This document shows, one piece after another, positions 2,052 to 59,500 of a stretch of DNA of 64,000 nucleotides (the first letter of the stretch is position 1; each line of letters begins with the position of its first letter). Source of the stretch: Antedon mediterranea (lineage: Eukaryota; Animalia; Echinodermata); assembly GCF_964355755.1 (NCBI RefSeq), contig NC_092670.1, forward strand, positions 13,006,795-13,070,794, in the 5' to 3' direction. A program made the position numbers and the translations under genes. The notes below the pieces were generated by a model. The model saw nothing but the letters and a program-made list of their open reading frames with translations, was not told the DNA's origin and made no database searches.

Positions 2052-5000
2052 TCATTTTTTGGCTACATAAGTCGTATATGATGATTCATTGTTTTCTGTA
2101 TTTAAGTTTAAGTCGCTCCATTTACCATTTTGATACAGCGATTCAGCTTGATACAGATCTCTAAAATCGCCTTGTTGTTCTTCTTCGCCTTCTTGCTCTT
2201 CTTCGTTATTTGGTATACCAATGTCCAAATTAAGCTGCCCTGGTCCACAGCTCACAAATCCTGCATCCGCGACACCTTGTCGAAACACACCACCAGTTGC
2301 GCTCAGAGGCTGGATGTCTGACGTTGTTGGGAGCGACCGTCTTGCGTTGTTAAAACCTAAACATAAAACACATTGAAAATTATGTATAAATATTACCATG
2401 ATATGAACAGTGTAATTATGATAATAAAATTGATCACTTTATCTTAAAAGTAAGTAAATAACAACTTAGGCGTCCTGGCTAATGTATATCCTACAGTATT
2501 TTAAGCAATTAATTATAATATTTTGTAGTGGAGCTGTAGCTTGGTTAACGTGCTTGCCGATCTCAAGGTTCCATCCTAACCTACCTGTTTTTGCTGTGAT
2601 TTCGTTCACTTTGTCTGCTGCATCGACCATTCCACAACTTCGAAGATGAGGTTCGAGCTTTCTAAAATCGTTGTCATTCATATTGAGATATCTGGTAACG
2701 GCAAGCTCAACACAAATATTGTCTTTTTCTGCCTTGTCAAAGTCTTTGTAAAGGAACTCTTTAAATGCTGGTGTTATGCTCTTCTCGATGGCTGCGCAGA
2801 TTGTTTTCATGTTGTCTTTTATTACGTTGGTTTGGGGTTTTTTAAAATTAGTTTGTCTGGTTGTATTGCTTAGATTTAGTTTGGTCGTATGTGATTTTCC
2901 CTTAATAATACAATCTATAATGTGTATATCTGTCGTTTCAGAGACCGGAATGCCCAATTTAACTGATGATAAATTGTCATCGAAAACACACGCAAGATAG
3001 TTATGTAACGGCACCTGTAAAAACAATACTGATGCAATTAAACTTGTAAAATTATTGAGCAAAATAAGGCTCAGTAACGGTTTTTTTCATTCCTTATTGC
3101 TTTTTTGAGAGAAAACCGACCCCCTCTTCCACCCTCTCCCACCCCCACATTTTGAAGAAACGTACAACAGCTGAATGTGCATAGGCCTAATGTAAAATTT
3201 AGAAAATTGTATTAATATGTTCTCTTAATAAGGGTTGACCGTACTGTTAACAAATATAACTTACCGTGCGGTCATCGATAATGATATTAACTTCTGAATC
3301 CTTATTGCAATAGCATTGCTTCTCAGAATTCAATGATTTTCCTGGGTCTTCTGTCTAATTATTAAATGTTAAATATTCATATTAATTTATTCTTTAGTAC
3401 AATTAGTAAAAAAAAATCTTCTTGTTTTAGCCTACAGTGTATTGATGGATCATTTTACAATTATTCTACTCCAGTTACTGCAGTAACTACATTTTGTGTA
3501 ACTTGATTATGCAATTTTTGAGAATGTTTTTTTTATGTAATCGATTATTGCAGTGACTACCTCATAAACCTCTAAAATTAATAAAACTAAAATTTTACAT
3601 TTATTGCAGTAAGAAAATGTAGTTATATTCCATTTTGTTTAATGTTATATTCATAATATCTTTAGTTTATTTAAAGAGAATTCCGAAGGCTGGGTCAACT
3701 TTTGAATCTGTTTTAAGTTAATTTCAAGCTCAAATATAAAAGTAATTTTACTTACATTGACTTTTCTGACTTCCATGTGAACCTCATGTCTTCCGTGAAC
3801 ATATATTTGACATGCGTTTATCTCCAAAAGCGTCATCCGCTCGAGTTCTGAACAATTATCGTTGGCTTGGTCCAATTCTGTTTTAAACTTGGTAAAGTGA
3901 TTTACAATTATACAAGACTTATTATTCTTTATGTATGCCGTACCATCAGACTTGCACATTTTGGTCCAGTCGCCATTTTCCTGCTTACAAGATACAATAG
4001 ATCTTGGTTTCTGTAGCACATTTTCAGGTACGTTACCGTACAGCTCGACACGAAGGGTCACGTACATGTCAAATGTAAGACCTTCTGGACCACACATTAC
4101 TTCTGGACATAAGGGAATCTTTCCATCGGTTTTCATATATCCCAAGTTGTAGATGAAAACATACGTCTGCTTTGGCAACGCGCCTTCTGGGATTGTCAAC
4201 GAAATCATGCCCAACGTTAGAGTCGCACCTTCCTTATCAACAGTCGCAACTAGCATTCGTCTATCTTTCGATAGTATGTATTTGTCACGTGGCTTCTGTT
4301 TCAAATCTCGTACTAAGCCAGAGTACATAATTTCAAACTTATTACGTTTCTGTATGTGTTGAACCTCTCCGGCATCGACCTGTAGAAAATAAGCATACTG
4401 TATTTGTATTTTGCTGGCAGTAGGCCTACAGTAATTAAAAATTACCTATTACACGGACTTCTTATAGTCTGTATGCCTAAATCTGTGTCTACACTATCAA
4501 AAATATGATGTGCCCATATATGGACATGGTGATGTCATATCGCTATCACATTTGGGCATATCAGTACCACGTCACACTTTTTTTGTCACACAAAGTTTGA
4601 TAGTGTAGACAGAGCTTAATATTGATTAATTGTTCACACGGCTGTGTTTACACACACTAGATAGAGTTGAGTTAAACTGGTCCGAATCATATCCGAGTTA
4701 CATCCGACGCGAATTGCCCTTCTGGTCAGAGTAACTCCGATATACACTGTTTTAATTTATTGTTTGATTTAGTCTAACCGTTATCAGTTTAGTGTAAGAG
4801 AGGGCATATCACAACATTCAATTTAAGTCATTGAATTCTACGTGTAATCAAGGCAATATAGCAACAGGGATGCTGAGCTCCAGAGACCAACATGTTTATC
4901 TACATACCACACCCAGACACGGCACGCCGCGGAGAATATGTACATAGGCCTAATGTTGGTATTTGTCGTAGCAAGATAGAAAATCAAAGGACTGTTCCTA

Positions 5001-15938: not shown

Positions 15939-18900
15939 TCACTTCTTAATAGCGGGCTTAATAGTCATATATGTAGGTTCTTTGTTTTCTACATTTATGT
16001 TCTCTTTCCTTATTACATTTTGATACGGAGGTTCAAACTTATGTTGACCTTCAAACTGATGTTGATCTTTAAACTGATTTTGACCTTCAGCCTGATGTTG
16101 ACCATCAGCCTGATGTTGATCTTCAACCTGGTGTTGACCTTCAACCTGATGTTGACCTTCAACCTGATGTTGACATTCAACCTGATGTTGACCTTCAACC
16201 TGATGTTGACCTTCAACTTGATGTTGATCTTCAATCTGATGTTGATCTTCAATCTGATGTTGATCTTCAATCTGATGTTGACCTTCAACCTGATGTTGAC
16301 CTTTAACCTGATGTTGACCTTCAACCTGATGTTCAAACTGATGTTGACCTTCAAACTGATGTTGACCTTCAAACTGATGTTGACCTTCAAACTGATGTTG
16401 ACCTTCAGACTGATGTTGATGTTCAGCCTGATGTTGCTGTTCAGCATTATGTTGACCTTCTGCATTATGTTGACCTTCAACCTGATGTTGTTCTTCAACC
16501 TGATGTTGATGTTCAATCTGATGTTGATCTTGTTCCTCTTCGTCTTCACTTGCCGTACCACCAATCTCAAAAGGAAGAGCATCTAAGCGACAGCTGTTAT
16601 CCCACATATTTACAACTCCTCTTGGTTGATAGGGACCGCCGTTTGTCATCAGTGACTGACAATCGGGGGGTAGTGGAAGTGAAAGTCGTGTATTGTCAAA
16701 TTCTGAAAAAATAAACATTTACAACAATTATAATTATAATACAATACACGGTATACCACGAATATAGTGTAACCTCTAGTATTAAAATGGAACCTTCACT
16801 CTTCCCTATGGGCACCAAAGTGTAACTCGATAGAGGTGTCGTCTGAACAGGGGTTATCTTACTATTCAATAAAATAGTTTTTCTTACCATATTTTGCTGT
16901 GATTTCGTTAACTTTGTCTGCTGCATTGGCCATTCCACACGTTCGAAAATGAGGTACTAGCTTTCTAAAATCATTGTCATTCATATTGAGATATCTAGTA
17001 ACAGCAAGCTCAATGTCAGTATTGTTCTTTTCTTCCTGATCAAAGTCTTGGTAGAGAAACTCTAAAAATTCTTGTGTCGGTGGGCTCGATTGGATAGCAT
17101 CGCAGATTGTGTTCATCTTGTCTTTGTTTACATTAGTTTGGGGTTTTTTTAAATGCTTTTCTCTCGTTGTGTTGCTTAGATGTATTGTTGTTGTGTATGT
17201 TCTTTCCGTAACAGTACAATCTATAAGGTGTATATCGGATGTTTCGGAAACTGGAATGCCCCATCTAACAGATGATACATTGTCATCGAAAACACCCACA
17301 TGATATTTATATAACGGCACCTGTAAATATAACACACTTTACCTTTAAAAAATGGTACCGTATGCATTTTATTATTTATATTTAGAAAATTAAAGGCTCA
17401 GCAAATGTTTGTTACTTCATACTGCTTATTTTGATAGAAAAAACACACACACAATTTGTGAAGAAACAGAATTCCTGAATTTGCCTACCAGTATCCTTCT
17501 CAACTTTCAACATGTACATGCTAAATACCCTATGTCTGTTTCTGTTATCACTGCCAAATGATTGTCTTAAACATTCATAGTATAATCTATACTATTAATT
17601 TTATGATTATTTAACATTATTAATTAATTGTTTTTAAATAACTTAATAGTGTATAAAAACATTTGCTTAGTCTGGTCTGCTCGTGCTTACAGGTGCTCGG
17701 TACACTTTGAAGCTAGTTTGTAATATTACCTTACGATCATCGATAATGATATGAATGTTAGAATCTTTGTTGCAATAGCATTGCTTCCCAGAATCCAATG
17801 CGTTTCCTGGGTCTTCTTTCTATAAATATTAAATGGTATTGATATGATTTTTACAAATTTATTTTTACTTACTATAAAGCAAGAAGAACAATTAGCACAA
17901 ACGAAAAGATGCATTGTCCTCAAAGCATGACATTAATTAAGATTAATAAAATTACACTTTGAATATTTTGCAGTCTTTATAAAGTTCCGTAGACAAGCCT
18001 GTCAGATGTGTTGTCAAAGTAAATATCTGACAATAAGCAAGTAAAATAGGTATACAATTATAATTATATCAAAATGGCTTGTATATCAGTGTGCTTAAAA
18101 ACACTTTAAAAACAATAAACATTTTAAAATTCATAATAACTTTAGCTTAAGTGAATTCCTCATTGTATGTGTGCTTCGTTATGATTGAAGTTTGACAATA
18201 CATATAATAATGGAATTGACAACTTTTACGCACATATTTTTAAATGATCATTAAAGTATTGGAATATAACAGTTATTTTCTTACATAGATTTTTCTGAAT
18301 TCTACGAGAACCTCTTGTCGCCCGTGAACATATCCTCTACATGCGTTTATCTCCAAAAGCGTCATCCACTCGAGTTCTGTACAAGTATCGTTCGCTTGGA
18401 CCATTTCTGTTTTGAACTTGCTGAAGTGCTTCACTATTATACACGACTTATTATTCTTTATGTATGCCGTACCATCAGACTTGCACATTTTGGTCCAGTC
18501 GCCATTTTCCTGCTTACAAGATATAATAGATCTTGGTTTTTGTAGTAACTTATTTGGTACATTACCGTACAGCTCGACACGAAGTGTCACGTACATATCG
18601 AATGTGAGACCTGGTGGACCACACATTACTTCTGGGCATAAGGGAATCTTTCCATCGGTTTTCATATATCCCAAGTTGTAGATGAAAACATACGCCTGCT
18701 TTGGCAACGCGCCTTCTGGAATTGTCAATGAAATGTTGCCCAGCGTTAGTGTCGCACCTTCATGCCCAACAATCGCGACTAGCATTCGTTTATCTTCAGA
18801 TACTATGTATTTTTCCCATGGCTTCTCCTGTTTTAAAGTTCGTATTGCATCAGTGTACATACTTCTAATTTTTGGTTCTTTTATGGTGTTTTCTTCAATC

Positions 18901-20115
18901 TGTCCTGGTTCTTCCTGATAAAATATAATACAATTTCATTCGTTATTGTTGAACCAGGGAAGAGTGGAATTTCTTCTCCCTGGTTGTACACTATCAACAT
19001 TTTTTAATCGATTAGGATAGACGTTTAGTTTTTAGTCGCGTGGAAGCGACTCTATTGTTCACTATGTCGGTCGGTCTGTCGGTCTGTCGGTCTGTCGGTC
19101 TGTCGGTCCGGTATCACTATGCGTTTTATCGCTTTCTGACCTTATCTTGATATCAGTTTAATCTAGCTAGGTCAATTTTTCACAGTATATTCCTTATGGC
19201 CAGGAATCGATGTGGTTATGTTTTCACGGTGCGCAATAAAAAAATTACGCGTTCTACGCACGATTTAACGAGATCACGTTTGTAATCATATCTTCACAAC
19301 CATGAATCACAATTAAATAAAATTTGGTACTCATAAATTTCAGGGCATAAATCATCATATGGCAATACAATTACGTGCGTAGCGCATGTAACACATACGT
19401 ACGCGCGCTTAAAATTTTCAAAATTTATTTTCGATGAAGTAAGAGTACGTTTAAGGCAATTTTAAGCGTTTACAAAATTGCCATGAGTGCCCATATTTTT
19501 GCGCGCGCACGCGTTAAATGTTGTTGTGCACTCTTTTTGCCCGATTTCTGTTTTCTTGACCTACTTTTCAACTCGAAATTACGTTATACGAGCACGTCAA
19601 AAGTGACAGGCTACGCACGTGTAAATTAAAAAAATATAAATGTTTTTAAACATTTCAACATTTTTAAACATGTTCAGTAATTTCGGTCAGTATAGTTCAC
19701 TATGTCGGTCGGTCGGTCTGTCTGTCTGTCGGTCTGTCGGTCTGTCTGTCGATCCGGTATCACTATGCATTGTAGCACGCGACTTAATGGCTGTTGGCCT
19801 TGTTAGTTATATGGATAATTCTGAATAAAGTTATACATTTTTACATAGTTTTTATAGTTTAGTTTGATTTGATACGTTAAATGTTGGAATGTTTTTGATG
19901 TATATTACCTTGGTTTCAGGTGGCATGAAGTATGCGTAATCATTTTCCTCGCAATTTGACTGATCTTCTTTGTCTTTCTGATTGGTGCTACAATATTCTT
20001 TTTTCAATGCACTTTTGCGATTTTCTTCAGACGAATTCGTCATGTTATTGGTCATGTTTTCATTTTCTTGTTGATGATTGTCACCCTTCGATTTGCGATC
20101 GTATTCATGATTCAT
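15939..20115 (-). CDS. Paralog B: ZU5-UPA-like-death domain protein with (QHQVEG)n repeat in C-tail, about 707 aa
   Basis: Exons 20115-19909, 18914-18285, 17819-17730, 17320-16888, 16702-15939; same intron positions and phases as A. ZU5 ends in VKHFSKF. Confidence 0.85.
16038..16532 (-). repeat. Coding 18-bp minisatellite, about 27 units, encoding (QHQVEG)-like hexapeptides
   Basis: Unit TGATGTTGACCTTCAACC and variants inside the last exon of paralog B. Confidence 0.95.
19028..19805 (+). mobile_element. Non-autonomous Helentron-associated (HINE/DINE-1-like) element, long form, in intron of paralog B
   Basis: T-run, subterminal IR AGTCGCGTG...CACGCGACT, (GTCG/GTCT)n microsatellite, 3' hairpin end GGCCTTGTT. 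Near-identical inverted copy at 42161-42897. Confidence 0.75.
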
Positions 20116-22891: not shown

Positions 22892-22926
22892 TGAGTCATG
22901 GCATAATAAAAAAAATGGGGATTTTA
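22892..22926. promoter_or_regulatory. Conserved AP-1 / AT-rich / kB-like module upstream of paralog B
   Basis: TGAGTCATGGCATAATAAAAAAAATGGGGATTTT; candidate 5'UTR exon donor at ~22744. Confidence 0.45.
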
Positions 22927-23025
22927 TTTTATCCACCTTGAATCAGGTTAAGTTCCCCCTCTAGTCCTACATTAAATAAATAATGTAATCGCGGCGGTAT
23001 AGGCTACAGTATTAATGTCAGCTTT

Positions 23026-23920
23026 GTTTTTAGTCGCGTGGACGCGACTCTATAGTTCACTATGTCGGTCGGTCGGTCGGTCTGTCGGTCTGTCGGTCCG
23101 GTATCACTATGCGTTTTATCGCTTTTCTGTACTTTTTGAACTGTTTTGATGTACAGACAATTAGTCGCGTGGATGGACGCGACTCTATAGTTCACTATGT
23201 CGGTCGGTCTGTCGGTCTGTCGGTCTGTCTATCGGTCCGGTATCACTATGCGTTTTATCGCTTTTCTGTACTTTTTGAACTGTTTTGATGTACAGACAAT
23301 TAGTCGCGTGGGTGGACGCGACTCTATAGTTCACTATGTCGGTCGGTCTGTCGGTCTGTCGGTCTGTCTGTCGGTCTGTCTGTCGGTCCGGTATCACTAT
23401 GCGTTTTATCGCTTTTCTGTACTTTTTGAACTGTTTTGATGTACAGACAATTAGTCGCGTGGGTGGACGCGACTCTATAGTTCACTATGTCGGTCGGTCT
23501 GTCGGTCTGTTGGCCTGTCTGTCGGTCCGGTATCACTATGCGTTTTATCGCTTTTCTGTACTTTTTGAACTGTTTTGATGTACAGACAATTAGTCGCGTG
23601 GATGGACGCGACTCTATAGTTCACTATGTCGGTCGGTCTGTCGGTCTGTCGGTCTGTCTGTCGGTCCGGTATCACTATGCGTTTTATCGCTTTTCTGTAC
23701 TTTTTGAACTGTTTTGATGTACAGACAATTAGTCGCGTGGGTGTACGCGACTCTATAGTTCACTATGTCGGTCGGTCTGTCGGTCCGGTATCACTATGCG
23801 TTTTATCGCTTTTCTGTACTTTTTGAACTGTTTTGATGTAAAGAAAAGTTTTAAAGTACATTACTTTTTGAAAGTTCATTTTTTTCTGAGAGCACGCGAC
23901 TTATGGCTGTTGGCCTTGTT
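23026..23920 (+). repeat. Tandem array (6 units, ~120-150 bp) of the HINE/DINE-like 5' terminus, closed by one 3' terminus
   Basis: Repeated TTAGTCGCGTG..GACGCGACTCTATAGTTCACTATGTCGGTC(GGTCTGTC)n CGGTATCACTATGCG...GTACAGACAA; ends GCACGCGACTTATGGCTGTTGGCCTTGTT. Confidence 0.9.
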
Positions 23921-30130: not shown

Positions 30131-33077
<2,947 letters not shown>

Positions 33078-34007: not shown

Positions 34008-37000
34008 CTAAGCCTGATGAAGCTCTAAAAAGTTACCTTGTTCTTCTTCCTTCTTTCGAATGTAAAAAGGAAGATCTTGTAAGTCACAGTTATCATCCCC
34101 CAATTGAATATTTGGAGTCAATGGAGATCTGCGTGACATGTCAAAATCTAAACATAAGAAATGAAAAAAAAAATAGAATCATTATATTAAATAATGTACA
34201 AGCTCCTTATGTTAAAAAATATAGTCATGAGTTGGATGCACAAAACATAACATGATGAAAATAGTATTATAATAATGAATATTAGCATATTATACATTAT
34301 ACCTATTATAGTCGCTTTTATGCAATACAGCATATTCGATTAAATAAGGGGCCATAATTATTTTAAACAACACTAAACTCTAAACATAACAGAATTATAA
34401 TCAAATAATATTTTAAAGTTATTGTATTAGTTTTAATTTAATACAGCGGAATGACACGCAGTACCTGCGATTTCGTTCACTTTGTCTGCTGCATGGGCCA
34501 TTCCACATGTTCGAAGATGAGGTTCTAGCTTTCTAACATCATTGTCATTCATATTGAGATATCTAGTAACAGCAAGCTCAATGCTAGTATTGTTCTTTTC
34601 TTCCTGATCAAAGTCTTGGTAGAGAAACTCTTCGAATTCTTGGGTCAGGTTCTTCTCGATGGTAGCGCAGATTATTTTCATGGAGTCTTTGTTTACGTTA
34701 GTTTGAGTTTTTTTTAAATGATTGTCTCTGCTCGTCATGCTTAGATTTATTTTGGACATGTATGCGCTTCCCTTGACAGTATAGTTTATATGGTATACGT
34801 CAGAGGTTTCCAAAACTGAGATCCCCCAACTAACGGATGAGAAATTTCTATCAAAAACGGCATATGTATATAACGAAACCTCCTGAAACAAATAACTGTA
34901 GTGTTACTTGACCTTCATTATAAATATTCATTTTAAAGCAAAGATATAAATGGAATCATTAAAGGATAATGTTAACAGTCAAGTATTACGGTATGTTAAA
35001 TCATGAACGAATTTTACCTATCTCTAAATCAACGTAAAATGTTTAATCGCGGAAATTGAATTTATTTAAAAGGTATTTTAAATTTAAACACATTCACACA
35101 AATTAATGATAAAGCTGTATTTACAAATTTGGACATGAATGGTATGAAACATAATAAATGAGTTTGATATATTATGTAAAAATCAACCAGTCGCTGTATT
35201 CCACGTCTAATACTGTATACGTATGTGATCAAACATTATCGTAATAAGCCTACACTACTCTATTGAGAGTTGAAATTTCGCATACTTTTACGAACTTGAG
35301 TTACATCGTCTCCTGCATACGCTTGAACTCAGTCACTCAGTCTCTGCTATCATATAAATGCAACTGTACCTGCTTTGAATTTTAACTTACTATGGGATTT
35401 TCAATACCGATATCAATTGCTGTATCCTTATCTCTATTCTTCTTTTATTTCTTTTTATAAAATAATATTACACATTTTAGTAACGCTCATATTTGTTACC
35501 AGTACCAATTTTCCTCCTTAATGGTACGTTTTCTTATACATACCTCGTCGTAACCTTCATAAATGATATCAATTGCTGTATCCTTATTGCAATAGCAGTG
35601 CTTCTCTGAATTCAAAGAGTTGATTGGATCTTCATTCTATATTAATAGTTAGATATTAAAATTGTTAGTCTTTGTCTTTACAATGTCCACGAGATACATT
35701 GACATTACTGTAGTTTTAATACAAACATAAAAAAAAAATTAGAATTACGATGTTTAGCCTAAACCTCTCAAAGTAAAACTATTAAAAATAATAGTGGAGT
35801 TGATATTCAAACAAAGGCTAAACTACTTTATATAACACCTAAATAAATTCCTGTCATTTGATTGGACGATTGTGGGTCACATGGCGTGCAATAGTACGCA
35901 CTATTAAACGATCGTTTAATGTTATTGTTATGACTGGTTTAGCAATGGAAATACATTTTCGGAGAGAGATATACAATATAATATGTACTCATTTAGATCA
36001 AAAAGGCATTTAAATTAGCTTTAGATCATTTTTAGGACTTTGATTAATTAATGGCAACATCTCTACAAGGCGTGGAATCGTAGAAAAGAAACATAATTAG
36101 CCTAGATGAGTGTCTGTCGAAGTTTTGCCTTTCAGCCTAGCTAGTACTAGGCCTGTTAGTAATAGGCTATGCCTAGCCTAGGCGTTTTAGCCTTGCTAGG
36201 CCTAGGATTATTTGGTCGTTTGTTGACATAATTAACACTAAAGTAGGTGCTTGTGATAAAATCTATATAAATATACATTTAATATATTATTATTAAAAAC
36301 TAAATGTTAATGTTTTAATCAATATGAATCAAGTGTAGGCCTTGGCTAGGCCTACCTTTTATTTCATTCAAATGACCGGAATCTATTTAGATGTTATGTA
36401 AAACAAAATAATGAATGTTTTAAATTCGTGTAACGGTACAAATAATGGCATTTGGTGAATGATGAAAGGTTAAATATTAACTCGGCTTTGCCTCGTTGAT
36501 ATATAACCTTTCATCATTCACTTCATGCCATTATTTGTACCATTACACTCATAAACATTCATTATTTGTATAATATTGCACTTTGATACTAATGTCGATT
36601 ACATAAACTTTTCTGAATTCAACGTAAATATCTTCTCTTCCGTAGAATGATTCTCTACATGCGTTTATTTCCAAAAGCATCATTCGCTCGAGTTCTGAAC
36701 AATCATTTCCTTGGTCCAATTCTGTTCTGAAATGTGTGTCTTGTTTCACTGCTATACAAATTAGAGTTTAGAAATGTGTTATAAGTGTACATGAGTAGAC
36801 AATTTTAAGAGAAAGATTGAATTCCAATAAGAGCCCAGCATATTTCTTTGCTCCATCTGTAGTTTTTCACCCCTATTATAATAGTGACAACATTTGTTAC
36901 TTTAAGTTTACCTTTTGCATTTGTTCCTTTGAGCATGCGTAATGCGTCGTTGTAATTAAGTTGATCAATGTGTGTGATCCATTCCTTTTGAAATATTTTC

Positions 37001-39338
37001 TGCTGATTTTCGTCTAAAACTAATATTTCTCCTAGGTCTTTAAGAAGCTGTCCACTTTGATGCATTTCCCATATGTGTATTAATGCATATTTGTCAATTA
37101 TAGACAGTGTGAGAACTATAGATCCTTTTCCTATGTGCAATAATTTCGAACCATTTACTTGGACGTAGTAGTAAACACGATGCTGTAGTTTATTATTAAA
37201 TTCCTTCGCAGCATCAGCATTTAGACTGCCAACATATTGGTCAAGTTGATCTAAGATGTCATCATCTATGTCGTTTTCGTTCTTTCTTTTAAGAGTTACG
37301 GTTAGTTGAGCTTCTATAATAATTGAATGATTAGAAAATATTTTCTGTACGGTATATTATCGATTATATTCGTGCAATATTTAGTAACTAATGAGATTTA
37401 TCTGTATACAATTCCTTACGTTAAACCAGTAATTAGATATACGTGTGTGACGTGCAGTTTCGATTTCGTGGTAATGAAAGGATGTTAGTGGTTGCTAGGA
37501 GCAGCTTTTTAAAACTCACAATAAAAGGTGAAGGTGAGTCCCGTATTCATTCTGAACGTAGGGGTGAGCTGTTAGGAGCTCATTGTACTAAGCCTCGGCA
37601 TTATGTGGTAGGGTGGCCAGTTCCTTTCCACACCGCCTTTTTCTCCCTAGTATTTTAAACCAGGTACTCATTTACAGCTGAGTGGACTGGGAGTTGTCTG
37701 GAATTGAACCCGGGTCTATCTTTATGACAGTCAAGTGTCCTAACCACTCGGCTATCCAACTCCAACAATACATATATTTAAATATAAATCAGTTAAAACA
37801 GTTTTCGAAGATAATGTGATTTAATAAATGGAGGAGATGTAGATTATTAAAAATATAAATGTTTACGTTTGTATCAACTAAATTTAAGTAAAAAAATAAT
37901 TGCAGTATTTTCAACTTGGTTAATGTTAAGAGTGTAAGACATCTTGGCATTTTATTTAAAGGGCTCCAAGTAATTGTCTGAAACACGAGAAACATATCAC
38001 CTTTGAATTATACATCAATTTGTTTATTGACCGTACCGTATCAATAATGTCTTACCCTTTAAATTAACTGTATCAACTTTAAACAAATTATCGATAATGT
38101 TATGATATAACACGTACAGAAAATGTTGCTTAAAACTTTAACAACCTTACATACCTTGCGTAAGAATTTCCACAGCTTTATGTAGTCCAATATTTGTCAA
38201 GGTCTTAATAAATGTTTCCATTTTCCCACTTTCTTTACAAATAATATGTGTGTGTTGTAGATCAAAAATAAGATCCCACCCATCTTTATAGTTCTTTGGT
38301 GGCCTATTGTACGAAGTATCAATTTTTTTTACATCTTCCTCTATTAATTCATTTCCAAACTTTGTAATTTGTTGTTGATGATGGCTGAATTTCGTAATAA
38401 TCTTGTTTTTAACTTCAGAAAGTGAGGGTATGTGTACGAAAGTTCGAAGTTTGTCTACAATACCAAACTGCTTGGTGGCCTTAATGGTATCAAACAGAAG
38501 GGTGAGATCTTTTGAACTTAGTTCTCCAGAATTAATTAATTGATTGAGCAAGTCCATCGTTGTAGTGGCCCTAGATAAATCAGCTTCTTCAATATAACCA
38601 TGATACAAAACTTTCAGTTTACTGATAAGTGATCGTTCATCATACCAAGTTGAAAAACATACTAAAGCCTGATTAAAAGAGTTTTCTAAAAAAGGAAGAA
38701 GCCCATAATATATAAAAAAAAAACTTTAACAATACAAACATTGGATCTTATAATTTGTAAAATGTACTAATGGCAAAGGTCCAAGAAGCAGTATTTTATT
38801 TCAAATCAGGTTAAGACATGACTCAATAATTCATTTCTGGCATAAATTAGGATGTTATAGAGGGCGCTATACACAGGTATGGAACAGGTTTCGGTTTGGC
38901 CAAGTGATAGTCTTCAGTTTATGGAACTGATGCTCATCAACATCATCCTTGTTTTTTTAAAATATAGATATAGTTGAGTTGAGAGAGATTAGGGCTATGA
39001 TCAGTTGTATTTAGAACATATGTCAGTAATGTAATTCTTTATCATAGAAAATAATAAATCTGCCTTACCCTGATTTGTAAATCTGTCTTTTATTTTTAAT
39101 ATTATAAATTAATCAAAACATGTGTATTAATACCAAAACTATGAGCAAATTAAGGTATCAAACACAATTTATAATGGCAAATTGTTTTGCTGGTCCGTGA
39201 ATAATCAGGGATGATTAAATTATTCGTAATCATCACCGCCATGAGTGAAAATTAGTAATATGTGAAATCCTGTAGGTCTACAACAATTTTGTACAGTCGA
39301 TGTACGTAAAATAGAGGTGACTTACCTGATTCAGCCAT
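34008..39338 (-). CDS. Paralog D: tandem DED-like + TRADD-N-like + ZU5 stub/UPA-like + death domain protein (about 581 aa alone; about 1067 aa if spliced to C)
   Basis: Exons 39338-39326 (MAES), 38685-38155 (two DED-like repeats, e.g. ATTTMDLLNQLINSGELSSKDLTLLFDTIK), 37313-36912 (HIGKGSIVLTLSIIDKYALIHIWEMHQSGQLLKDLGEIL, TRADD-N-like), 36751-36603, 35636-35544, 34882-34465, 34147-34008 (or internal donor at 34037). All junctions GT-AG and in frame. Confidence 0.78.
35826..36550. mobile_element. Non-autonomous element with a Crypton-like palindromic end, in intron of paralog D
   Basis: Long terminal hairpin centred on AACTCGGCTTTGCCTCGTT (36440-36545); similar motif at ~33335-33363. Absent from the equivalent intron of the other paralogs. 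Confidence 0.4.
37445..37765 (-). mobile_element. tRNA-derived SINE in intron of paralog D
   Basis: Minus strand A box TAGCCGAGTGGTTAGG, B box GGTTCAATTCC, then GTCCACTCAGCTGTAAATGAGTACC body. Confidence 0.6.
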
Positions 39339-42160: not shown

Positions 42161-42897
42161 AACAAGGCCATATAGATGGCTGCAGTCGCATGCTCATTAG
42201 TGTTTAACGAACCGACAGACCAACCTACCAACTGACCGAAATTACTGAACATGTTTAAAAATGTTGAAATGTTTAAAAACATCTATATTTTTTTAATTTA
42301 CACGTGCGTAGCCTGTCACTTTTGACGTGCTCGTATAACGTAATTTCGAGTTGAAAAGTAAGTCAAGAAAACAGAAATCGGGCAAAAAGATTGCGCAATA
42401 ACATTTAACGCGCAGTGCGTGCGCAAAAATCTGCGCACTCATGGCAATTTTGTAAAAGCTTAAATTGCCTGAAACGTACTCTTATTTCATCGAAAATAAA
42501 TTTTGAAAATTTTAAGCGCGCGTACGCATACGTTGCATGCGCTACGCACGTAATTGTATTGCCATATGATGATTTATGCCCTGAAATTTATGAGTACCAA
42601 ATTTTATTTAATTGTGATTCATGGTTGTGAAGATATGATTACAAACGTGATTTCGGTAAATCGTGCGTAGACCGCCTAATTTTTTATTGCGCACCGTGAA
42701 AACATAACCACATCGATTCCTGACCATAAGGAATATACTGTGAAAAATTTACTTAGCTAGATTAAACTGATATCAAGATAAGGTCAGAAAGCGATAAAAC
42801 GCATAGTGATACCGGACCGACAGACCAACCGACAGACCGACCGACCGACAGACCGACCGACATAGTGAACTATAGAGTCGCGTCCACGCGACTAAAA
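42161..42897 (-). mobile_element. HINE/DINE-1-like element, long form
   Basis: Reverse complement of 19028-19700 joined to the 3' end of the short family members (GCAGCCATCTATATGGCCTTGTT). Confidence 0.75.
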
Positions 42898-43702
42898 AAA
42901 ACCACACACAACAATGCATAATTAAGTTTAAGCTAAGTTTGGCTCTAACTAATGATTTCTGTTCAAATCATTTCTGTTTTAAAACTCAATTTGATATTGT
43001 TTTTCTTGAATTGTAAAACTTTCGGCGTGTATTCAAGAGAAACAAAACATAAGTAGAATGTCTTTACAATTAGTTACAACTTGGTTAAGGGTTTGTTTAT
43101 GGTCTATGATATTACGAGATATACATTATTGTGAATTTGTTGTATGTACATTAACCAAATATTCTTAAAATACTGGATAAACAGGCACGAATGTGCGATA
43201 CACGGGGTACAGCAAAAGAAGCTGTAATGACGTTATAAGACGGGATGTGACGTCACATATACATCAATAACCTCGGTACCAAATACGGTTATATGGTACC
43301 ATCTTCGAGACGTCATATGGCTGCATCCGGTTTGAAATTTAAAAAAATCCGGCTCTATAGCTTTGAGAACATGTCCCTGTAGTATATTCATGCCAAATCC
43401 CAGCTCAATACTACAACGAATAAGGGATCGGAGGAGTAGTACTTTATAAATCTCACTTTCTACTCAATAGTGTCGGATGGAGGAGAAGATGAGAGAGTCC
43501 TAGACTCGGGTACCCCGAGTAATAAAAACAAATACAGTAGTACCGAGAAACGGGTGATGTTGACAATGCTTAAAACAGTGTATACCATTTTGTGAACCCT
43601 TCGAATGGAAATATTACCCTTGGAACTCTTCCAAAACAAATTCCCACATTCTTTCAAAATGTGTGTAGGCCTACGTTTTGTTAAGCCTATAGTTTGCTAT
43701 TA

Positions 43703-46251
43703 TCACTTTGGTGAAAACCCCATATATGATGGATTTTTGTTTTGTACATTTGAGTTCTCTTTCATTTTAACATTTTGATAAGTAGGTTCAGCTCGATCTG
43801 GATCGTGTAGTTCTTCTTCACCGTCACTTGACGCCCCAACCTCAAAAGGAATTAACTCTTGTGGTCCACAGCTGACATCCCCCACATCCGCAACTCCTTG
43901 TGAAAATATACCGCCGGTTGCACTCAGAGGTTGAATATCTGGTGTCAGAGGAAGCGACCGTCGTGACTTGTCATAGCCTAAATAAAAGACAATTAGAATC
44001 ATTCAACAATGCGCAAAACAGTTATTCTTATAGTAGAAGCAGAATATTAAAAAAAAACATTTTTTTTTACCCAAAATGTCTGTAATTTTGTCAACTTGAT
44101 CTGCTGCATCGGCCATTCTACACCTTCGGAGATGGGGTAAAAGCTCTTTAAAATCGTTGTCGTTCATATTAAGATATCTGATGATAGCCAGCTCTAGAGA
44201 AATATAGTTCTTTTCTTCTTGGTCGAAACATTGATACAGGAACTCTTCAAATTCTGGTGTCAGGCCCTTTTTGATGACAGGACAGATTATGTCCATGTTT
44301 TCCTTGCTTAAGTTAGTTTGTGGTTTTTTAAAATGGTTTTCCCTGTTCTCAGTAAGATTTATTTTGGTTGTGTGTACATTTCCGGTAACTTCTACATGAT
44401 GTATATCGGATGCGTTTAAAGCATCCGATATAGGGATGCTGAATGTAACTGAAGATAATTTGCTATCAAAAACACTTGCAAGGTAGTTATGTTCTTCTTT
44501 ATATAATGACACCTGTAAAACATCATAGAAAAAAAAAGATTTATTTATTATTTACAATTCTACAAAATGCACTTATTCACGGATCATAGTAAATGTTGTG
44601 CAAGCAGTACAAATTGCTTTATCAAGTATGGACATTAATGTACAATGATACAACATTATTAATACAATGATCTCTATTCTATATTATTGAATTTTTTTCG
44701 GGATTTTTTTTATAAAATAATATTACACATTTCAGTAACGCTCATCTTATTTGGCCTAATTTACTCAGTACCAATTTTCCTCCTCAATGGTACATTTACG
44801 TTTTCTTATACATACCTCGTGACCTTCAAAAATGATATTAATTTTTGAATCCTCACTGCAATAGCAGTGCTTCTCTGAATTCAATGAGTTGATTGGATCT
44901 TCATTCTATAGTTAGAGATATCAATCACACTGGTTATATAATAATAGTTCAATTAAAAAAAGTAGTACTGTACACAGTTCCAATCAATTTAGATCATCTT
45001 GTCAGGTCAAGCCTGTCTAGTGTCGGAAATGAATATTCAGAAGAAATAGTTGTAGTAGAATATTTTGTTTATAAATGGCATTGAAGAATAGAAATTTAAA
45101 TGCAAATGCTACTTACATCAACTTTCCTAAATTTAACTTGAATCTCTTCTTTTCCATGGACAGATGATGATTTACATGCGCTTATCTCAAAAAGTCTCAT
45201 CCGTTCAAGTTCTGAACCATCTTCGTTTGCTTGGTCTACTGCTGCATTGAACTTTGTGAAGTGGTTCACTATTATACAAATCTTGTTATTCTTAATGTAT
45301 GCCATGCAATCAAGCTTGTACATCTTAGTCCAGTCGCCATCTCCTTGTTTACAGGATACAAGGGATCTTGGTTTTTGTAGACATTTTTCAGGTATGTTAC
45401 CGAACAGCTCGATACGAAGTGTCACGTACATGTCGAATGTAAGACCTGGTGGACCGCACATTACTTCTGGACATAGCGGAATCTTTCCATCGGTTTTCAT
45501 ATATCCTAAGTTATATATGAAAATATACGTCTGATTTGGCAACGCGCCTTCTGGAATTGTCAATAAGATCATGCCTAATGTAAGCGTTGCACCTTCCTTG
45601 TCAACAGTCGCAACTAACATTCGTTTATCTTCAGATAGTATGTATTTCAAACCTGGATTATCCTTTAAATATCTCTTTAAACCAGTGTACATACTCTTAA
45701 TTTCAGGTTCCTTTATGGTGTTGTCTGGAACGTGTCCGGATTCTTCCTGCTGCGAATAAAAAAACACAAAAATCAATGTTTACTATTCATTATTGTACAT
45801 AATTGAATATTGTCGATCAGATCAACTTTTTGTTTGTAGGCCTATTCACAAATTTAAAAATAACAGTATTAATAATAATAGTTTATTGTTATATAGTGCT
45901 GAAATATATTATATATAATGTTAAATAATGTTGCATAAGGTTTATATTAATTTGGTTTATTTGTTTTGGTTTAGTGCAATCTTTTGGTAAATGATACATT
46001 TTTTACAATCTGAAAAAAAACCTTTAAAATTGTAAACTTGTATTTCCATGTACCTTAATGGTTCCTGGTTGTTCGTATGTGTGAACATCGTCCTCACCAT
46101 TCGACTCTTCTTCTCTGTCTTTCTGAATGGTGCAATATGCACTTAGGCGATTTTCTTCAGACGAATTCGTCGTCGTGACATTGGTCATTTTTTTCTTTTG
46201 TTGTTGATGATCATTGTCATATTTTGGTTGGTGATCGTTGTCATGATCCAT
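43703..46251 (-). CDS. Paralog E: ZU5-UPA-like-death domain protein, about 544 aa
   Basis: Exons 46251-46054, 45746-45117, 44905-44816, 44512-44071, 43977-43703; GT-AG and phase-consistent. VNHFTKF. An alternative upstream ATG lies at 46284. Confidence 0.85.
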
Positions 46252-53401: not shown

Positions 53402-55290
53402 TGTTTATGATAGGGCGTATTATGATATAATTGCCTTTATATTAGTTTAAAAAAGAAAATAATAATAATAAAATACTCAACTTCAGTTCGGATACGTTTT
53501 TGAACTTTTGATTTAAAATTAATTATATTAACTAACAATACTAAAACTATTACTATTATTATTAAAATAATATTGTAATTATTAGTGTGGCAGATTGGTA
53601 GATTTTTTTGCCATTGCTATTACGCAATAATATCGAATACTGTTCTTAGATTCGGTACTCTAATGTAACGTCATTCTATTATTGGAAGTGTTTGTGTGAC
53701 GACACAATAAATAAATTAAGCACTGAGAATCCGAGCTTTTCTATTCAGAGGGCGCTCTATTTACATAAGGTCCAAAATTGATGAGATACGATGACGTCAC
53801 CAATATTTTGATTTTCTTGAAAAAGGCATGTTACTGTAGTATACTATTTACAAACAAATCCCACCAAAAACAAACTTATAATTAAAAATATATTTATTTT
53901 TGTTATCGAACATTCTTCTTTTAATTTTCATATCAACTAATTGTATTTTTTTTTCTCTTTTGTGGGGGCAACCCACTTTTATTGCAATGATAAACAATAT
54001 GGTGAAGGTTACAGCATATATTTCTATCTATCTATTTATCAATGAATATTTAAGTGATATTACACAGACAGAGGTTAAAAGATTATATAAAATATTTTGA
54101 TATTGTGTTGAAATCTAGATAAAACAAACATGTATACAGAGAACATTTATATTACAGAGCTAAAACGATATAAAGATTGATATTCAGTATTAAAAAGAGA
54201 TTCGATATAATATAAATATATATGATAAAATGGTATATTGCATTATAAGATTATGTTTTGTTTGAATACTTTTATAAAATTGTATAGTTTTACATTTTGA
54301 AATTTTAGTGACCTTTTTGCTCTTTTATAATTAATTAGCTAATGTCGATTTTTTTTATCGAAAATTGTTAATTTCTGCTCCATATATTGGCTATCGAAAC
54401 ATCGCTTTTTAGTGACTTTTATACTCGAGCATTGCTTTATAATACTGTACAGTATATATTTTTCCTATTGGCCATTGATCATCGTATTGTTATTGGTTCT
54501 GCTCTATTGGTATCAGCCATTTTGTTACCTTTTTTGCTCTATTAATTTGGCCATTTAACATTTTATTTTAGTGAAATTGTTTTGCTCCATTTGCTCTCAA
54601 ACATCGTTCTTTTAATTACTGTTCTACTTCATTGGATCTACATTGTGTATTTTAGTGACTTCTTTGCTCTACTGCTGACCATTGTATTTTTTTTTTGTTA
54701 CTTTCTTGCTCTGTTGGCAATTGAATGTTGTTCTTTGTTTACCTGTTTTTTTAATTACTTTTTTCTCAATCGACCATTGTATTTTTGTTTATTTGATATT
54801 AGCTTTTCTGCTTGATATCAAAACTGTTATTTTGATATTATTAATGGCGATTTTCTTCTCTTGACTAAACTATTATAATAATAACTACTATTTATAATAA
54901 TGCTAGTATCCAAATATTATACCTGTGTGCTACATTAATGCCATAATAACAATATTCTGTTATACACCAGTATACAATATGATTTGAGAATTATAGTGAT
55001 TTGTTTATTTGTTGTTATGATAGCCTAAAGAATGATGAAATTATAAATGATTTACTGTAAAATAATGTTACCAGTTTATTTATTTTATACGTAGCTATAA
55101 ATAATTTCGTAAATGCCATACAATGATAACAAAATCGACATATCATATCGACCTGTATATAATATATACAATATATATAATATAATACGTTTTTTATTTG
55201 TATGACAATTTTGAATTCACAGTATATAACCCCTCCTTGGGACACCAGGAGATGCTTTCCTATGACATAAGTGATGGGGATCTTAATTAA

Positions 55291-56586
55291 AACATGGACG
55301 GCAAACCCCTACTCAGAGACCGAAGGTGTCTCATTAATAGAGCTTCTACTGTTAACACATGGACGGCAAACCCCTACTCAGAGACCGAAGGTGTCTCATT
55401 AATAGAGCTTCTACTGTTAACACATGGACGGCAAACCCCTACTCAGAGACCGAAGGTATCTCAATAATAGAGCTCTACTGTTAACACATGGACGGCAAAC
55501 CCCTACTCAGAGACCGAAGGTGTCTCAATAATAGAGCTTCTACTGTTAACACATGGACGGCAAACCCCTAATCAGAGACCGAAGGTGTCTCATTAATAGA
55601 GCTTCTACTGTTAACACATGGACGGCAAACCCCTACTCAGAGACCGAAGGTGTCTCATTAATAGAGCTTCTACTGTTAACACATGGACGGCAAACCCCTA
55701 ATCAGAGACCGAAGGTGTCTCATTAATAGAGCTTCTACTGTTAACACATGGACGGCAAACCCCTACTCAGAGACCGAAGGTGTCTCATTAATAGAGCTTC
55801 TACTGTTAACACATGGACGGCAAACCCCTACTCAGAGACCGAAGGTGTCTCAATAATAGAGCTTCTACTGTTAACACATGGACGGCAAACCCCTAATCAG
55901 AGACCGAAGGTGTCTCATTAATAGAGCTTCTACTGTTAACACATGGACGGCAAACCCCTACTCAGAGACCGAAGGTGTCTCATTAATAGAGCTTCTACTG
56001 TTAACACATGGACGGCAAACACCTAATCAGAGACCGAAGGTGTCTCATTAATAGAGCTTCTACACTGTTAACACATGGACGGCAAACCCCTAATCAGAGA
56101 CCGAAGGTGTCTCAATAATAGAGCTTCTACTGTTAACACATGGACGGCAAACACCTAATCAGAGACCGAAGGTGTCTCATTAATAGAGCTTCTACTGTTA
56201 ACACATGGACGGCAAACCCCTAATCAGAGACCGAAGGTGTCTCATTAATAGAGCTTCTACTGTTAACACATGGACGGCAAACCCCTAATCAGAGACCGAA
56301 GGTGTCTCATTAATAGAGCTTCTACTGTTAACACATGGGCGGCAAACCCCTAATCAGAGACCGAAGGTGTCTCATTAATAGAGCTTCTACTGTTAACACA
56401 TGGACGGCAAACACCTAATCAGAGACCGAAGGTGTCTCATTAATAGAGCTTCTACTGTTAACACATGGACGGCAAACCCCTAATCAGAGACCGAAGGTGT
56501 CTCATTAATAGAGCTTCTACTGTTAACACATGGACGGCAAACCCCTAATCAGAGACCAAAGGTGTCTCATTAATAGAGCTCTACTG
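55291..56586. repeat. 65-bp minisatellite, about 20 highly homogeneous copies
   Basis: Unit ACACATGGACGGCAAACCCCTA(C/A)TCAGAGACCGAAGGTGTCTCATTAATAGAGCTTCTACTGTTA; no spacers. Confidence 0.97.
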
Positions 56587-59500
56587 TATTGTTGAAAATA
56601 TAACTATTATGATTCAATAAAGTTAATATATTTACATTATAGTAATGCTATATAGAAATTTAATAATCTCGAGGCCTACATTTTGTCGATATGCATATAT
56701 GTTTAAAATGACAGACTATCAATACAGTTATTTCATATCGAAATTGTATATTATTTAGATTAACAGATCTATATTTATATGAATATTAATATTTCAATAA
56801 ATATGATTATCACTATCAAAACAATAGAATTTCAATATCTATTTTGATGAGAGAAGAGTTTAGCATTATTTTTTATTTAGGCGTAAATGTGAAATAATCT
56901 CGCTTTTCTCTAACATGTTGTTGGCTTGCTTTTGTTTAATGATGAAGATTAAACATATAAATTAATGATTGTATAACCTGCACATGTTCTCTGTTGAATT
57001 AGGCCTACATTCTTGGAAATCAATATACCGTTCGACAGGTTGTTACTTGCCTGCTGCTGCTGGTAAATGTAATACTTTCTTACAGGGGGATTGCCTTAAT
57101 GTTTTATTTGGGTTACAGTTTGTCATGGTCACAGTTACATTAATTGCAGTCAGTTGCATATCAATTCAGTTATTTTTGTTTAAACATAAGTTAAATATTA
57201 TATTTGTTCTGATCGTGGAATACAGATAAAACAATGGTTGATTTTAGCTACATTTACTTAGGCTATCTTTTTGACAACATACACAATAAAGTGACGCGTC
57301 ATAGCCTATATAACAGCCGATTAATCGCATTAACCTCTGACATCAATCGCAATAAAATACCTATGAGTATAGAATAATATCTATTACAACCTATAAAGTT
57401 ACATTTTAATCCAACAAATAATCAATAAATGTTTTATATACAATTTACGTACCTAAGTTTACACTTTCGCTTGACTTTCATCTTGAAAATTTCTGACGCA
57501 ACTGCGCATGACACAGACCGTTCGTAAAAAAATAACTTTTTAAATAGAAAGTTTTAAATCGTTTGTTGGTTTTAGTTTAATGTACCGCATTATATACTAT
57601 TAATTTTTTAAGTACATAAATATATTATATTCTTGGTGGACATCAAATTATTATTGTTTATAATAACATGATCACGTGATGATAGAGAAGGTTGTAAGAT
57701 CATCAACGAAATTGCACGATTAAGAACATCTTTTTTGAAACAATGTTATATAGATGATATAATAGTTAAAAAAAGAAATTAGTAATTTATCATCACAAAT
57801 ACCATTTCACAAAAACAAGAATTTAAAACAAAACAAATCAACGAGAACGGGAACAAACAGTTAGGTTACGTTATATAATTTGAATTTTTTTTTAAATAAT
57901 TTAAATCAACGATAAAAAGACTTTTTACAGTACAGTAATATTAAAATAAATATTTTAAATTTATAATACAATTGTATTTTTTTGTCCATTTGTTTACATT
58001 TCTATAAACAATATATTCGATTTTAATTATACAAATGCATGTACGAGTCTTACGTCAAGGTGTGCCGTTGTATCATGCCATTTGCTTACAATGTAGGCCT
58101 AAATATTATTATTCAATAAACAAACAAGTTAGAACAAGGAAGATGAATAAATATATATAGTATATTTATACAATTTTTCGTTTTTGTATATTTCGTAATT
58201 GTTATAAATTAGAAACGATTTTTTTACTTTTCGATCACGAAAGTTGTATCGGTAAAACGTGCTGGGTTCAATGACATTGTATGTATGTATGTCACAACAA
58301 GCTAGCGTGTGACAATTTCACTGTCTGGGGACAAACATCAGGTTAAACATGCGAGAAAGAATCGGAAACCATTTAATGGTAAAATATAGGCTTAGTACAA
58401 GAAATTAACAATGCAATTAATTATTAAGAATGTATTTAGCATGATAAGGCCTATCATAATTATTTTCAATTCCATTTAGGCCCTATTGGCTGAGTAGCTT
58501 AGTGTCTTCTTAGCCCGCCTAACAATTTGTAACAGACGGTCAAGGAAAGGCCATAGGCCTATTAGGCTTGTGTAAACTTTCTACAAAATAATATACACGA
58601 CTGTTGTACGAAAGTCGTTTACTATGATTAAAAATTAAAAAAATTATGAAATGTCTATAAACTCTGTAACCAGTAAATATTGTCCTCTACTGTTCCGATT
58701 TTTTTTGTTTTATTTTAAAAGAACTTTTTAAAAAATAAATCGCCTACAAAAAAAAACACAAATTATTCATATTTTTTTTTAAAAGATAAAACAAATGTTC
58801 ACACAAGGCATTGTTACCATATAAAAATTTTTTCAATAAATTACCAACATGTTTAAGTTTTTCAATGAACTTTTCATAATTAATTATACAAAATAAGAGA
58901 AGTAAGAAAATAAATAAATGGCAAAAGAATAACGTTTAACATTTTTCAACGAATATTAAAAGTATTTGAATGTAACAATGGCAACATTAAATAATAACAT
59001 AGTAAGCACAACTACTGTATAACATGTTATGGCCATATCCTATAGGCCTATAAAACTATATTTTAATGAAATATTAGCCATATCCCCTCTGCAGCTGTCT
59101 TAATTAAATTATATTTATAAATATTTTGTAGACTTATATTCATTCATTTCTTCATCCATTCTGTCAGTATGTAATAAAAATAAATGTATTCTTAGAAATT
59201 AAGTATCAGACTTACACCATTATAGCACAATTTTGACTATTTAACAACGCTGTTGATTACATTCATTTATTTATAGGGTAAATAAACCAGAAAACGTGCT
59301 AGTTATTTTGTACATAACTTATTTATTTGATTTATTTTAAATTGTAACAATAGGACTAAAGAAAAAAACTATAGATGTACTGTATGTATTATTATGTGAA
59401 TAAAGTTGAATGAATGAATGAGATAGGCCATGACTTCTTATGGCTTATTTCTTCTAATGAGAACTTCATTTTTTTAGGTGAAAATAGGTAATTTATAAAT

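Follow-up and report, generated by a model that had tools for sequence, protein, structure and literature searches.

PIDD1 is reported to cleave at HF/S (PMC3210808, PMC9162469), and UNC5CL to keep self-cleavage (PMC10084454); background on the ZU5 domain is given in PMC3482391. According to the published descriptions of PIDD1, NLRP1 and CARD8, the ZU5 keeps the C-terminal fragment inactive, while UPA promotes oligomerisation (PMC9162469, bioRxiv 2020.06.27.175497, PMC8679799). A constant DED + TRADD-N combined with variable C-terminal partners, including ZU5/UPA, has been described in invertebrates by Kaur et al. 2021 (PMC8195603). Among the matches listed in supplement file 4 of that work are the sponge proteins XP_011408461.2 (DED+TRADDN+UPA+CARD) and XP_019855800.1 (DED+TRADDN+UPA+Death). 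These entries name no ZU5; as they are known from the listed architectures, a ZU5 might be present undetected. As for the origin of such combinations, Buljan et al. 2010 (PMC2926785) present exon joining of adjacent genes after duplication as the major route of domain gain in animals.

The window analysed here, a 64,000-nucleotide stretch of the crinoid Antedon mediterranea (contig NC_092670.1), contains a gene, D, that likely shares with the expansions of Kaur et al. a DED + TRADD-N pair joined to a UPA-type partner. D is a variant of this known shuffling pattern, the ZU5-less DED+TRADD-N+UPA architecture being already listed for sponge. It differs in that intact donor paralogs lie in the same array and that the junction is readable by nucleotide in two haplotypes. 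Compared to the route of Buljan et al., the junction of D is an acceptor inside an old exon and not an existing exon edge. The paralogs A, B, C and E resemble UNC5CL and PIDD1 in their ZU5 and HF(S/T) motif and likely also in a UPA-like sandwich and death fold, and exons 4-6 of D are the counterpart of the PIDD1-CC-like part. In contrast with these two proteins, the first module of D lacks ZU5 already in the gene and carries DED-DED + TRADD-N as fusion partners, and Pfam scans reported neither a transmembrane helix nor an LRR.

The tandem array and its intact paralogs

The window harbors a minus-strand tandem array, on which all features below are located. Four copies possess a full ZU5 exon: A (3756-4379), B (18285-18914), C and E (45117-45749). 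Module C (30134-32066) comprises an intact ZU5, UPA, death fold and tail, and forms the 3' half of a RefSeq D+C gene. In the fifth copy, D, the ZU5 exon is represented by its tail only. Pfam PF00791 matches the four full exons above cut-off (E 4e-9 to 8e-8), and the ZU5 ends with HFT in A, C and E and with HFS in B. An Anneissia japonica relative with 37% identity also exhibits HFT. Protein searches with D and its neighbours matched RefSeq models of Antedon mediterranea, and word-index protein searches yielded 4, 2 and 3 relatives, crinoid without exception. Literature searches found no paper title on this crinoid family.

Beyond the ZU5, the domain assignments were obtained from models. The Atlas model of paralog A matches models of UNC5, UNC5CL and PIDD1 (TM 0.54-0.58), and the Atlas structure rows name UPA; Pfam gives no UPA match. 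The model of paralog A built here from an 11-row alignment has a mean pLDDT of 49.9, below 50 in the ZU5 part (a single-sequence model reached 33). Residues 157-265 of this low-confidence model align to the CARD8 UPA (VIA Z 5.8), a resemblance that, together with a ZU5 predicted to be intrinsically cut and to hold a UPA-death-fold fragment, relates the family to the FIIND of NLRP1 and CARD8. The paralogs nevertheless display HF(S/T) where the FIIND has SF/S, and a Pfam FIIND search gave no match. The last ~80 residues of the model (273-356) match death folds, with a best Z of 7.8 and nearly all top rows being death folds; this part forms six helices with a pLDDT of ~67-87 and has no Pfam match. 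All Z values are below 8, a range common for unrelated folds, and they lend support only jointly with Pfam and Atlas. Foldseek with the paralog model returned no match at E 0.001, and PDB sequence searches returned weak ZU5 rows only. As modelled, A, B, C and E likely contain a UPA domain, and their C-terminal domain likely belongs to the death-fold superfamily. Judging from their sequences, these four would likely be self-cleaving ZU5-UPA-death proteins.

Other features of the window and of the matched proteins were recorded. In the last exon of paralog B (15942-16718), six-residue units rich in Q/H/E make up a long low-complexity expansion, and a tandem array of ~65-nt units with 95-97% identity occupies 55287-56587. 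A dispersed element occurs at 19029-19774, 22900-23900 and 42231-42901, in inverted orientation and with 95% identity over 670 nt, with related tandem units near 23000-23800. The ZU5 protein P0153 displays HFS at its extreme N-terminus and HFT after its ZU5, as would the back portion of a protein with two ZU5 domains in tandem.

Gene D and its spliced ZU5 remnant

D assembles, in this order, a DED-like pair, a TRADD-N-like exon, the final 49 codons from a ZU5 exon, a UPA-like domain, a likely death fold and a tail, in a 581-codon open frame of seven exons. The coding part of exon 1, with the start codon, lies at 39326-39338, and its 5' UTR extends further up. Exon 2 (38155-38685) encodes the tandem DED-like domains (Pfam DED at E 1.6e-5, which is under the curated cut-off), and exon 3 (36912-37313) the TRADD-N-like domain (PF20694, E 0.0014, below cut-off), ending with a phase-1 GT donor. 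It is followed by the fusion intron (36752-36911), a 160-nt GT-AG intron of phase 1, and by the 149-nt exon 4 (36603-36751). The latter is the ZU5-exon tail, namely the segment after the predicted cut and the start of the UPA-like sandwich. Exon 5 (35544-35636) encodes UPA-like sequence and exon 6 (34465-34882) the end of this domain plus the probable six-helix death fold, as seen in the paralog A model. Exon 7 (34008-34147) reaches the stop at 34008 when it is read through; the RefSeq models splice it onward from a donor after 34037.

A first, sequence-only reading of this DNA had proposed that the fusion point is a splice acceptor inside old ZU5 coding sequence, and the D and B codons that it quoted are correct as written on the minus strand. 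Blastn aligns D 36599-36758 to the ZU5 exon of B (75% over 163 nt, E 4e-25), beyond chance, which establishes the homology. As also proposed, the rest of ZU5 is gone: ~160 upstream ZU5 codons are missing from the first module of D, whose motif is QDT or QYT. The idea of a remnant tethered to DEDs holds in that a DED-like exon lies in frame upstream, but the TRADD-N-like exon intervenes before the remnant.

The D fusion is transcribed, and the acceptor inside the former ZU5 coding sequence is in use. In run X1, exons 1, 2 and 3 are connected at their predicted edges within one 1755-nt contig, which then passes from 36912 to 36751 and from 36603 to exon 5. X1 is not recorded as RNA; its transcript status was judged from exact exon joints, which DNA-like runs lack. 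It derives from another sample and study than runs X2-X5, in which no such joint occurs. This splice evidence consists of one contig from one run, which may also be part of the RefSeq evidence. Exon 4 is spliced, shows 0 mismatches in this second sample and is not a pseudo-exon; skipping it would produce a frameshift in D.

Upstream of exon 4, the likeness to ZU5 reaches merely 9-11 nt into the fusion intron. It is marginal in the window haplotype, its score being reached by 2 to 17 of 150 shuffles, and by 25 to 92 of 150 in a second haplotype described below. The fusion intron has no match elsewhere within the window (best E 0.094). Downstream, exon 5 and its flanks (35430-35666) are close to C/E, while exon 6 is far: the dS to C is 0.06 in exon 5 vs 1.2 in exon 6. 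This likeness probably stems from local gene conversion, as far as the sequences tell. Between exons 4 and 5, a high-copy, MITE-like repeat cluster (35827-36577) begins ~25 nt past the exon 4 donor, with inverted repeats at 36406-36567 and 35827-35864/36365-36402 and a summed depth above 100,000 in DNA runs.

The N-terminal half of D belongs to a widespread assembly. The DED + TRADD-N pair is common to many relatives in the protein match list. Among 154 proteins compared, 22 others are TRADD-N-like, of which 18 match D to near the exon end and then continue with unrelated sequence. The partners found in the 25 of 150 matches scanned include NACHT, Roc-COR, TIR, B-box, ubiquitin and Rel domains. 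From these sequence comparisons, the DED-DED/TRADD-N cassette is promiscuous and a frequent donor. The best 150 of 153 representative matches contained no orthologue of the fused gene, a weak negative since this list is made mostly of DED matches. To note, P0005, a DED-DED/TRADD-N protein encoded on another chromosome-scale contig of Antedon, is 64% identical to the N-terminal half of D and ends just past the TRADD-N exon, making it a candidate relative of the donor cassette.

The NAGNAG acceptor and the second haplotype

The acceptor of exon 4 (36749-36753) is a NAGNAG, with a proximal AG (exon start 36751) and a distal AG (exon start 36748). Spliced to the phase-1 donor (36912/36911), either AG keeps the reading frame, in agreement with the sequence-only reading, and RefSeq lists both isoforms, XP_071958857.1 and XP_071958866.1, one Ala apart. 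The use of the two sites is documented unequally: the 36751 junction is present in the X1 contig, whereas 36748 appears as RefSeq isoform X2 only, contigs dropping minor forms. The acceptor had been ascribed to an ATA-to-GCA change, an origin that is not supported. An in-frame TAG already lies four codons before the S/T (position -4) in three of the four paralogs (B, C and E; A has no AG there), and the distal AG is the sole AG of the second haplotype at that spot. On this sequence evidence the distal AG is likely ancestral; it is likely and not proven because A has no AG at -4 and because exon trees do not fix the nearest donor paralog of D. The proximal AG, and hence the NAGNAG, would likely be a later gain in one haplotype. 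The novelty at the acceptor is its upstream context. The 20 nt before it contain 11-13 pyrimidines (13/20 in the window), compared to 7-8/20 in the coding sequence of the paralogs, and a branch-like motif is found upstream of the D acceptor and in none of the paralogs.

In runs X2 and X5, the segment 36699-36981 occurs in two versions of comparable depth (136.5 and 146.6 in X2). The first equals the window sequence, and the second, 281 nt long, departs from it by 28 substitutions plus 14 gap letters (~10% divergence). Rebuilt from the listed differences (281 nt, the record length), this second haplotype keeps the donor and the frame, has an acceptor with the distal AG only and reads QYT at the motif. 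A single base separates its Tyr codon from the ancestral Phe codon, and likewise from the Asp codon of D. An intermediate state, which the sequence-only reading suggested looking for in orthologous loci, is found in this second haplotype. Depth is ~220-260 over exons 1-3 and ~150 downstream; the pattern fits two alleles in one animal, a duplicate being another possible source.

At the HF(S/T) position (36735-36743), the degenerate motif is QDT in the window. Its H and F are changed, and the codon of the Thr nucleophile is intact in both haplotypes: the catalytic motif, earlier described as erased, is decayed rather than erased. A later 'HF' of D (36734-36729) was rejected as the motif, as aligning it would take two indels and the ungapped alignment suits the second haplotype. 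In CARD8, the Phe is described as a buried anchor required for cleavage (PMC3210808), so the Phe of D would be free to drift without a ZU5. Residues invariant among the paralogs are retained in D in 2/5 cases within the first seven positions vs 78/92 afterwards (Fisher p 0.036, for a zone chosen after seeing the data; p 0.063 when the Anneissia homolog is included). The dN/dS of the remnant against the paralogs is 0.42-0.61, vs 0.22-0.57 among paralogs; the former includes pre-fusion divergence and does not separate constraint before and after the fusion.

These data bear on whether D may be a tolerated by-product of array turnover, with little function beyond providing a promoter and leader for C. 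Its divergent haplotypes (28 substitutions and 14 gap letters apart), the apparent conversion of exon 5 from C/E, and the fact that TRADD-N and this module are combined in no other protein among the 154 compared would all suit such a locus. Against it, the 581-codon frame is intact over seven exons, frame and splice sites are kept in both haplotypes despite ~10% divergence, 78/92 invariant residues are retained and exon 4 is unchanged in a second sample, and we hold this reading to be very improbable.

Position of the junction and possible roles of D

The piece encoded by D begins 4-5 residues before the position aligned with the HF/(S/T) site. In this respect the sequence-only reading, which saw in D almost exactly the post-cleavage C-fragment, is close, but the N-terminus of D is tethered and the cut site is a predicted one. 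From this proximity it could be argued that selection favoured a gene-encoded copy of the post-cleavage fragment and that the fusion point marks the functional unit. Further arguments in this direction are that the earlier AG is used although in-frame AGs at +5 and ~+15 would also keep the UPA, and that conservation picks up directly past the motif. The sponge DED+TRADD-N+UPA+CARD proteins, ZU5-less as listed by Kaur et al., would then be a case of convergence.

The choice of sites was however narrow. In-frame YAGs within five codons of the site number 1/7 in A, 2/10 in B, 2/10 in C and 2/13 in E, frequencies that make one such event unremarkable, even before considering the need to fold. The next in-frame YAG upstream of -4 is at -63 or -64, ~60 codons away, and would leave half of a ZU5. 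On the other side, the UPA-aligned residues of the model start 15-20 residues past the motif. Since the fusion must drop ZU5 and keep UPA, about three choices are left (-4, +5 and +15), and between -4 and +5 the first-AG rule of splicing prefers the former. The position was therefore likely set by the availability of splice sites and the domain edges, and not by selection for resemblance to the cut product. A junction within 5 codons of the cut site is weak evidence for design, and so is the claim that the position independently marks the functional unit, as the available splice sites and the boundary between ZU5 and UPA would lead to almost the same spot. Considering also that D is tethered, unlike a released fragment, and that cleavage of the paralogs is itself predicted, selection for a fragment copy seems unlikely to us.

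The product of D may extend further. In both RefSeq models, exon 7 is left after 34037 and followed by a 47-nt linker exon (33031-33077, found in the RefSeq models only), then by the intact module C. The resulting D+C product is 1067 residues long and carries HFT at 750-752. It makes doubtful the earlier description of D as uncleavable. When the linker exon was compared with the upstream exons of B and E, the likeness was not significant (405 of 1000 shuffles for B, 335 for E). One X1 contig, with a depth (7.9) close to that of intronic pieces (5-6), continues past the 34037 donor through the stop at 34008; it fits a short isoform or unspliced RNA. To note, an X1 contig over exon 7 (34037-34147) has a depth of 142.6 vs ~26 for the upstream D contigs, contig depth being a poor measure. 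Exon 7 contains an in-frame ATG: C might have an internal start, or another locus might share exon 7.

The UPA-death unit of D could also act as a decoy or brake: tethered to a bulky N-terminal part, it would cap or dilute the assemblies that released fragments of the paralogs form, or silence its own C module, in keeping with RefSeq placing D in cis with C. Uncleaved full-length CARD8 is reported to have dampened released-fragment signalling (bioRxiv 2021.01.13.426575), and an N-terminal MBP tag to have limited fragment assembly in vitro, although the tagged fragments still made small oligomers (bioRxiv 2020.06.27.175497). The CARD8 brake, however, needs an intact FIIND and DPP9, both foreign to the first module of D, and a braking role appears distinctly unlikely.

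The account that we prefer, by a modest degree of confidence over even, joins a history and a role: D would be a chimera formed via a pre-existing in-frame AG, acting as a ZU5-free adaptor. Through a rearrangement of the array, a truncated paralog would have acquired a mobile DED-DED/TRADD-N cassette on its upstream side. The phase-1 donor would then have spliced to the TAG at -4, the earliest usable in-frame acceptor at which the ZU5 body is removed and the UPA stays whole. H and F would have drifted afterwards, with no ZU5 core left to hold them, and one haplotype would later have gained the proximal AG. The adaptor role is proposed by analogy to NLRP1, CARD8 and PIDD1: the uncapped UPA-death unit of D may assemble together with the UPA-death fragments that A, B, C or E would release, while its tandem DEDs may attract either a DED caspase or a partner of the FADD type. 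In the long D+C product, self-cleavage would be retained, at F751/T752. A bolder version makes D a gene-encoded stand-in for the released UPA-death fragment, linked to tandem DEDs so as to bridge self-cleaving ZU5 sensors to DED caspases and independent of the sponge proteins in its origin, with splice-site birth and motif decay visible as two segregating haplotypes. This we put forward tentatively, as a possibility that is more doubtful than probable.

One locus records, at nucleotide resolution, the birth of an immune architecture, with four intact donor paralogs, a recruited acceptor and two stages of motif decay. It provides a natural test of whether a tethered UPA-death-fold unit can signal and, by analogy with the known systems, a candidate connection, in echinoderms, of DED caspases to ZU5 sensors predicted to cleave themselves.
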